A stretch of DNA of 64,000 bases from Escherichia phage adrianh: sequence record MN850614.1. One strand, written 5' to 3'. This document shows positions 61,385 through 61,526 of this stretch, one piece after another (positions within the stretch are counted from its first letter, which is position 1; the number at the start of each line of letters is the position of its first letter). A program made the translations under genes and the position numbers. The notes under the pieces are model-generated. The model was not told where the DNA came from and did not search any database. It saw nothing but the letters and a program-made list of their open reading frames with translations.

Positions 61385-61526
61385 ATTATCTTTGTAGATA
61401 AGTTATTAAGCTTACCTGTGAGTATGCGACCACAAAGGGTGAAAGGGTAAATTCTAGATTTAAACCCAAAAAGGCACATCGCTACAGACCTTAAGCAAGT
61501 CTGGGTAGCTTATCTACAAAGATAAT
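61385..61526 (+). ncRNA. Element enclosed by a perfect 17-bp inverted repeat
   Basis: TTATCTTTGTAGATAAG at the 5' end and its exact reverse complement at the 3' end; internal CAGACC ... GTCTGG hairpin. Confidence 0.4.

Follow-up and report, generated by a model that had tools for sequence, protein, structure and literature searches.

A structured RNA module was identified in the transfer RNA (tRNA) cluster of Escherichia phage adrianh, within a 64,000-nucleotide stretch of DNA (sequence record MN850614.1) that is referred to here as the window and numbered from its first letter. The module spans ~145 nucleotides (nt) of the + strand at 61384-61527. Its two ends form a long inverted repeat, which is interpreted as the closing helix (P1, 22-24 base pairs, bp) of an RNA with three enclosed hairpins. 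In the reading that we favour, with a probability of about 0.6 for the reading as a whole, processing of the tRNAs would set free a stable structured RNA, and cleavage of P1 by ribonuclease (RNase) III could be part of that process. The element is apparently an undescribed structured RNA family, within a known kind: the small RNAs embedded in phage tRNA operons.

Inverted repeat and predicted fold

A preliminary description of this DNA had reported a perfect 17-bp inverted repeat in the tRNA cluster. The repeat was recovered, with coordinates that differ by one from those first given: TTATCTTTGTAGATAAG lies at 61386-61402 and its reverse complement at 61509-61525. The full perfect repeat is 19 bp long (AATTATCTTTGTAGATAAG, 61384-61402 with 61509-61527), leaving 106 nt between the arms. 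Acceptance of one T·G position extends it to 22 bp (61384-61405/61506-61527), and two further G·U pairs in the RNA fold give a helix of 24 bp. This is the longest perfect inverted repeat at a gap of up to 300 nt in the 64-kilobase (kb) window, and 60 first-order Markov simulations gave maxima of 11-15 bp. The 19-bp repeat is not a chance occurrence, since its length exceeds the simulated maximum of 15 bp and the fold has a z-score of −5.3. Imperfect local inverted repeats number 13 in the window, and only the one at 62590-62679 (85% complementary) is longer.

The z-score was obtained for a 152-nt stretch, which folded at −48.3 kcal/mol; none of 200 shuffled sequences folded as well. Single-sequence and alignment folds gave the same four-way junction, composed of P1 and the hairpins H2, H3 and H4, all on the + strand. 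The 5′ strand of P1 (61384-61407) consists of the perfect 19-nt arm (61384-61402) followed by G·U pairs that extend it to 61405 or 61407, and the 3′ strand (61504-61527) contains the perfect arm at 61509-61527. H2 (61412-61442), taken from the minimum free energy fold, has the stem ACCUGUG / CACA..GG.U and the loop AGUAUGCGAC, and H3 (61445-61467) reads GGGUAAAUU-CUA-GAUUUAAACCC. H4 (61485-61503) corresponds to an inner CAGACC...GTCTGG hairpin that had also been noticed earlier and was borne out here, with CAGAC at 61485-61489, the loop CUUAAGCAA at 61490-61498 and GUCUG at 61499-61503. A 4-nt spacer, UAAU (61528-61531, +), separates P1 from the first base of tRNA-Lys(UUU) (61532-61607, +), the invariant downstream neighbour of the element.

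Covariation, strand and coding potential

Covariation was measured using 18 sequences from four lineages and a structure consisting of P1, H3 and H4 (35 pairs). Cells of the alignment were paired in 97.6% of cases, compared with 89.2% after shuffling; the real value was reached in none of 500 shuffles, and slid controls were 23-52% paired. Both sides had changed in 14 of the 35 pairs (7.3 expected). For P1 (helices 1 and 2; 23 pairs) both sides had changed in nine pairs and 98% of the cells were paired, for H3 (helices 3 and 4; seven pairs) both sides had changed in three, and the covariation of H4 was assessed as helix 5. Compensatory substitution conserves the predicted fold of P1, H3 and H4. 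Another structured small RNA was one of the possibilities raised in the preliminary description, and it has held up: the stem and the three enclosed hairpins are kept with compensatory substitutions across diverged phages. The comparison with related phages that was proposed there has now been carried out, and the pairing of the repeat is kept in the relatives.

The apical loops are conserved on changing stems. The 9-nt loop of H4 hardly varies (consensus CYUWAGYAA) and caps about ten different stems, among them CAGAC/GUCUG, CAGACC/GGUCUG, CAAACC/GGUUUG, CAGUC/GACUG, CUGUUC/GAACGG, CCGUUC/GAACGG, CCAUC/GAUGG, CCGUC/GAUGG and AAAGUC/GACUUU; across the lineages it appears as CUUAAGCAA, CUUUAGCAA, CCUUAGCAA or CUUUAGUAA, and its end, GCAA or GUAA, would form a GNRA-like tetranucleotide. 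The H2 loop motif GRGU(A)KGC is likewise kept across lineages in which the stem reads CCUGUG/CACAxxGG, UCGUC/GAUGA, GGGG/CCCC or CUAU/AUAG, and G39, G41 and T42 of its G-R-G-U are invariant in a separate alignment of 17 sequences (A3). The CUAG of H3 is kept in both of the alleles described below (A and B) and in the lineage of the distant relatives L125 and L272. In allele B, H3 lies inside an extra covarying 7-bp helix (AUUUCCU/AGGAAAU, GUCUCUU/AAGAGAC or AUCUCUU/AAGAGAU).

About 79 G·U cells were counted in the 18-sequence test, against 15 non-pairs. A covariance model (R1) was built from the same alignment and scored the element at 168.7 bits on the + strand and 38.8 bits on the − strand. 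Because of the G·U pairs and the difference between these scores, the element was assigned to the + strand, which is that of the tRNAs. R1 also found three lineages that were absent from its building set (Wc4, 34.7 bits; L273, 32.2 bits; L274, 30.2 bits), and all of its matches are on the + strand, just 5′ of tRNA-Lys(UUU). The only open reading frames (ORFs) that overlap the element are 27-33 amino acids (aa) long, and variants of allele A differ by insertions or deletions of 1-2 nt that break the frame; the element is therefore non-coding.

Distribution and the two alleles

Felixounavirus LF82P2 (OZ035741.1) matches the window region at 100% identity, and many Felix O1-type phages of Escherichia, Salmonella and Shigella match it at 92-99%. 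The element was found in ~250 records of Felixounavirus, Suspvirus and Mooglevirus and in more distant relatives. Contigs of the remoter relatives (L numbers) were fetched by means of the neighbouring, Ro60-like protein. Distant copies occur in L125 and L272 (neighbouring protein ~62% identical), in L126, L273 and L274 (~55%) and in the Pectobacterium phages Wc4 and Arno162, and probable copies in L275, L276 and Yersinia phage P778 (L127). A loose DNA pattern, ATTCTAGATTN{25,45}AGCAAG, searched against viral contigs returned mostly chance matches and few true copies. In every lineage tRNA-Lys(UUU) lies 1-10 nt downstream of the element; the upstream neighbour varies and may be E4 (one of four E elements described below), an E3-type element, tRNA-Ala or a T-arm-bearing RNA.

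The element occurs only in Felix O1-type phages (Ounavirinae) and in relatives of these. No homologue was detected by blastn in 5,426 complete E. coli genomes, and a host or prophage origin was rejected on this basis. No Rfam 15 family matched 61384-61527, either at E<=1 (search of 59500-64000) or at E<=10 (search of 61240-61540). In GenBank records the position bears no annotation or a spurious small ORF. The element is not mentioned in the Felix O1 genome paper (PMC3185647), and literature searches on DUF2828, on Felix O1 small RNAs, on Felixounavirus transcriptomes and on phage Ro60 with tRNA clusters yielded no account of it.

Two alleles were distinguished. Allele A, the version in the window, is present at full length and at least 95% identity in 189 phage records. 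Allele B is present at full length in 60 records and is held by some Felixounavirus (BPSELC-1, CRP22, JLBYU32 and others), by Suspvirus (SUSP1/2) and by Mooglevirus (Moogle, Mordin and Sf18); host genus is not tied to either allele. The outer part of P1, the H3 apex AUUCUAGAUU and the H4 hairpin are common to both. The alleles are otherwise deeply diverged (~60% identical) in flanks that are ~99% identical: in BPSELC-1 the identity to the window is 98.6% over the 280 nt upstream, 62.8% over the element and 99.1% over the 234 nt downstream. From these near-identical flanks around a diverged element it follows that the module was replaced as a cassette. The boundaries of the exchange fall in the outer stem, where the two alleles share their sequence, and ordinary homologous recombination would explain the swap.

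Transcription and processing

The tRNA cluster (60374-63996, + strand) contains 18 tRNAs, and the element lies between E4 and tRNA-Lys(UUU). Two sigma-70-type promoters are suggested, as consensus matches only, by TTGACA-17-TAATAT (60227-60255, +) and TTGACA-18-TAAAGT (60318-60347, +); the next promoter match downstream is at 61781. No + strand terminator match was found from these promoters to 61781, and the sole match (60219-60250) overlaps the first promoter. With promoters upstream and no + strand terminator in between, the element would be part of one precursor, and the two promoters probably drive its transcription unit. A function of the element itself as an intrinsic terminator or attenuator was rejected; it contains no terminator match, and the A+U-rich P1 leads into UAAU and a tRNA.

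The proposed pathway begins with early transcription from the promoters at ~60227 and ~60318, which would place the element in a polycistronic tRNA precursor of the order Pro-Glu-E1-Met-E2-Asn-Tyr-Asp-E3-E4-element-Lys-Met-Ile. RNase P, in its usual role, would cut at 61531/61532 (position +1 of tRNA-Lys) and so make the 3′ end, leaving a 4-nt tail. The 5′ end would be made by an endonuclease cutting beside the upstream tRNA or E4. Since the outer helix of E4 overlaps P1 by 2 nt, this cut is expected within ~2 nt of 61383; in other lineages it would fall 1-11 nt after tRNA-Ala. Alternatively, both ends could be produced by RNase III cutting inside the long P1 duplex; an RNase III-type processing site, another of the possibilities raised in the preliminary description, is plausible. 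The paired ends would shield the RNA from exonucleases, so that a stable RNA would accumulate, and the conserved apical loops would then act, most probably as binding sites for a protein or for another RNA inside the infected cell.

Similar RNAs are known from the tRNA cluster of phage T4, in which species 1 and 2 (rnaC/rnaD) are small stable RNAs that are co-transcribed and co-processed with the phage tRNAs. They differ from the element in phage family and in architecture, and no T4-like phage is among the organisms and records listed for its blastn matches. Release of tRNA-flanked non-coding RNAs by RNase P and RNase Z is also known in eukaryotic and herpesviral systems (MALAT1/mascRNA, and tRNA-linked small nucleolar RNAs or microRNAs). 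As in the MALAT1/mascRNA type, the enzymes that process the neighbouring tRNA would set one end of the element, the analogy being one of biogenesis only.

Assessment of the proposed function

Several observations weigh against a stable, released RNA. The − strand folds with a z-score of −5.8, and fold energy cannot separate the two strands. The consensus structure was tested for covariation on the alignment that had supplied it, so that the pairing measures given above are inflated, and many of the sequences in the set are close relatives. H2 was left out of the formal count, as its register differs between lineages. The interiors of alleles A and B are only ~58% identical, so that much of this sequence may be spacer. 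The processing steps are themselves inferred, no perfect complement of the H2 or H4 loops is present in the window and no binding partner or target was found.

A purely cis-acting role, in which P1 serves as an RNase III site or as a structured leader that splits the precursor or controls the maturation or dosage of tRNA-Lys(UUU), and in which the enclosed RNA has no function, is considered unlikely. Stems processed by RNase III flank functional RNAs in other polycistronic transcripts, including the stems of the 16S/23S ribosomal RNA operons and the early R sites of phage T7. The element resembles these in that the sequences flanking an embedded RNA are predicted to pair, in a long multi-gene precursor, into a duplex of at least 20 bp. 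The closing helix totals at least 20 bp in each lineage, with 0-3 mismatches, bulges or internal loops. This is the length class of RNase III substrates (about two helical turns, or at least 20 bp, of double-stranded RNA, to be compared with 22-24 bp in the window), is far above folding needs and is far longer than the ~10-bp closures of the E elements; it suggests selection for long double-stranded RNA and would fit either RNase III processing or a double-stranded RNA-binding protein. A cis role would also account for the constant distance of 1-10 nt to tRNA-Lys(UUU), and the second long hairpin at 62590-62679 is likewise located 5′ of a tRNA, tRNA-Leu(UAG). However, a bare cleavage site needs neither the H4 loop nor the GRGU of H2, and both are kept while their stems covary, in phages with Ro60-like proteins that are ~55% identical. 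Unlike the T7 sites, which are simple hairpins with an internal loop and nothing enclosed, the element carries its own conserved hairpins in the ~100 nt between its arms. Erwinia phage Omen and L277, moreover, have tRNA-Lys without the element. A cis function of P1 is in any case compatible with release of a stable RNA, and the two are not exclusive.

A second alternative concerns the protein encoded upstream. The ORF at 58792-60207 (+, 471 aa) matches DUF2828+DUF7788 and PHROG 850 'RNA-binding protein', and has no sequence match to solved structures. An AlphaFold2 model (predicted local distance difference test, pLDDT, 88; predicted template-modelling score, pTM, 0.87) was searched against the PDB using Foldseek. 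The top 11 matches were all Ro60 proteins (TROVE+vWA), aligned over the full length (E ~1e-8, template-modelling scores 0.44-0.66), and they included proteins of Xenopus, Deinococcus (Rsr) and Thermus phage phiLo. The product of the ORF is thus predicted to fold like Ro60. It has >2,500 relatives, mostly from phages, and in distant phages the gene is again found beside tRNA clusters on the same strand.

Four elements downstream of this ORF, E1 (60540-60618), E2 (60707-60776), E3 (61162-61241) and E4 (61249-61385), all on the + strand, are built alike, from a 4-bp helix that covaries, an internal loop with AGA on its 5′ side and G on its 3′ side, a second helix (AGACC/GGUCU) and the box UACAGCAA. 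In E4 these parts enclose a V hairpin, a T arm, a closed acceptor-like hairpin and a D arm, which follow one another as they do in YrlA Y RNAs (PMC4201824). No YrlA-type Rfam match was found in 12 related loci. A generic 'helix, ARA loop, helix' scan gave ~500 chance matches in the coding part of the window and was replaced by the specific E motif, which occurs 1-4 times in every lineage with the Ro60-like protein and is absent from Wc4 and Arno162. The E elements are likely to be Ro-associated RNAs, and the structured element is likely to be independent of them. A kinship of H4 with the termini of E1-E4, suggested in the preliminary description, proved to be weak: the AGCAA box is indeed shared in the loop, but the stems are alike only in Felixounavirus and its close relatives. 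Outside these phages the H4 stem covaries freely, and the hairpin is retained in phages that lack E elements.

The Y RNAs YrlA, YrlB and Yrl1/2 are ligands of Ro60 orthologues (Chen et al., 2014, PMC4201824; phiLo Ro60, PMC12135203). Close to their 5′ end they carry the motif GNCGAAN0-1G (CGAA), either within the terminal stem or next to it (PMC4201824; PMC12135203). The element could be a YrlB-like partner of the Ro60-like protein, with P1 and H4 binding the protein and the multiloop binding an effector, but this is rather improbable. Like Y RNAs, which are found near a Ro60 orthologue (~4 kb, same strand), it is non-coding and lies on the same strand as, and <4 kb from, a gene for a protein of predicted Ro60-type fold, beginning 1.2 kb downstream of the ORF. 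Its 5′ and 3′ ends form a long helix around a large structured internal module, which is also a Y-RNA-like shape (PMC12135203), and it sits among E1-E4, which do resemble YrlA and YrlB. AGCAA is common to the H4 loop and the E-element box, and the copies in L126 and L273 have a closing stem of the E type (helix a, AAA loop, helix b, CAGCA box).

Unlike Y RNAs, the window copy (61384-61527) has neither GNCGAAN0-1G nor CGAA in the 5′ strand of P1, the nearest sequence being GCGAC in the H2 loop; an exact GCCGAAG was found only in one allele-B variant, Sf18, where it is inside H2. The window copy also lacks tRNA-like T and D arms: there is no Rfam tRNA match inside 61384-61527 at E<=10, and the sole partial match in the searched region is the T arm of the neighbouring E4 (61303-61323). 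R1 matched none of ~90 more distant loci that encode the same (Ro60-like) protein family. Wc4 and Arno162, finally, keep P1, H4 and the position before tRNA-Lys. A tblastn search of the whole Wc4 genome with the Ro60-like protein gave no match, and in Arno162 no such gene is present at the syntenic position or in the 8-kb stretch read. Because these two phages keep the element without a Ro60-like gene or an E motif in the sequence covered, it is probably not a Ro-dependent Y RNA; as judged from their genomes, the element does not require the phage Ro60-like gene.

Candidate interactions of the apical loops were also considered. The H4 hairpin resembles the anticodon arm of tRNA-Lys in the window (CAGAC...GUCUG against CAGA...UCUG); as a mimic of that arm it was rejected, the stems being unrelated in L126 and other lineages. 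A kissing interaction with the second long hairpin (Z) was not adopted. Z (62590-62679, +) has 26-bp arms that are 85% complementary and a z-score of −6.5, lies directly 5′ of tRNA-Leu(UAG) and is kept in Mooglevirus and in the L125/L272 lineage; a conserved UUGUUGCU in its apex complements the AGCAA that the H4 loop and the E boxes contain. In the window H4 could form 9 bp with 62643-62651, in the Z apex, but allele-B phages keep only the 5-bp core AGCAA/UUGCU, no covariation was found, and BPSELC-1 has allele B beside a Z with window-like stem and apex. The window holds fifteen chance matches with at most one mismatch for this pairing. The 8-mer of H3 has a single exact match in the window, in coding sequence at 20341. 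The 9-mer GAGTATGCG is common to the H2 loop and a tRNA-like gene (at 62062), which may be chance (~0.5 expected in 64 kb).

PrrC is one of the nucleases directed at tRNA-Lys. Another is AriB, the effector of PARIS, which degrades the tRNA-Lys of the host; phage T5 evades it by means of its own tRNA-Lys (PMC11464382). The element might be an exchangeable RNA counter-defence module tied to tRNA-Lys(UUU) that decoys, inhibits or senses such host nucleases. This is a speculative and very improbable reading, with which the invariant link to tRNA-Lys(UUU), the cassette-swapped alleles and the independence from Ro60 are compatible; if it were true, an arms race would lie behind the presence of two ancient alleles that circulate together in near-identical genomes. 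Against it, the H4 stem does not follow the anticodon stem of tRNA-Lys, and the allele does not covary with tRNA-Lys, whose sequence is the same in the window as in BPSELC-1 (L003).

A role at the DNA level, as the recombination site also proposed in the preliminary description, as the terminal inverted repeats of a small mobile element or as a palindromic protein-binding site, is scarcely credible: the arms of allele A are perfect over 19 bp and the module is exchanged as a cassette (as in BPSELC-1), but the lineages keep the pairing of the arms and not their sequence, many of the paired positions are G·U and so mismatched as DNA, the three internal hairpins covary too, there is a single copy per genome at a fixed position (with no other copy in the window or in the 5,426 E. 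coli genomes), the adjacent genes include no recombinase or transposase, and the exchange boundaries are in allele-shared sequence, as homologous recombination predicts.

Other features of the tRNA cluster

Two adjacent hairpins, GAGAGGGCUAUUUAGCCCCUCCC and UUAAAGGGUUCUUACGAGUAUCCUUUAA, lie between tRNA-Asp and E3 (61104-61164, +) and are kept in Mooglevirus and in L125/L272. Downstream of tRNA-Lys, the region 61766-62013 (+) begins with a near-consensus promoter, TTGACA-17-TATACT (61781-61809), followed by ~200 nt of non-coding sequence before the tRNA-like gene; it gave weak transfer-messenger RNA-type Rfam scores (29.4 and 16.3 bits) that are below threshold. The tRNA-like gene itself (62013-62092, +) was missed by ARAGORN and scored 31.7 bits with the Rfam tRNA model. 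Its counterpart in Shigella phage Sf18 is annotated as tRNA-Arg(TCT), and it has a seemingly unusual D region and a long variable region. A 14-nt inverted repeat (62321-62334/62423-62436, 93% complementary) brackets tRNA-Ser(UGA) and would lengthen its acceptor stem in the precursor. A 185-aa ORF (63355-63912, +; PHROG 2143) is located between tRNA-Leu(CAA) and tRNA-Gln and is kept in BPSELC-1.

In the relatives L127 (8970-9200), L278 (1900-2130) and L279 (1665-1790), a tRNA-like structure was found inside an extended conserved stem, GAGAGCUUYAGAGG ... CUCURAAGGUAGC. This structure is near the start of the tRNA cluster and is annotated as 'tRNA-OTHER' in Erwinia phage Omen. ARAGORN reported a tRNA-like gene at the cluster start with a 4-nt anticodon in L274 and L275 and a 2-nt anticodon in L276, which may be the same element. 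CRP22 has an HNH homing endonuclease gene inside its tRNA cluster (L002, 1553-2041), and Felix O1 (AF320576, ~24860-25500) and others have ~500 extra bases downstream of tRNA-Lys; none of the cluster insertions in CRP22, Felix O1 and others interrupts the structured element.

Significance

Felix O1-type phages are workhorses of typing, biocontrol and therapy for Salmonella and E. coli, and existing annotations leave the spacers of their tRNA clusters empty or place spurious small ORFs in them. One of these spacers holds a well-supported structured RNA family, present in ~250 phages, with defined architecture, strand and boundaries, which makes annotation, an Rfam model and deletion or swap experiments feasible. 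With a protein of predicted Ro60 fold and Y-RNA-like elements in the same operon, the cluster looks like a compound RNA-biology locus that goes beyond a codon-usage supplement. Hypotheses that can be tested follow from the free exchange of two ancient alleles and from the constant association with tRNA-Lys(UUU), a tRNA over which phages and host defences are known to contend.

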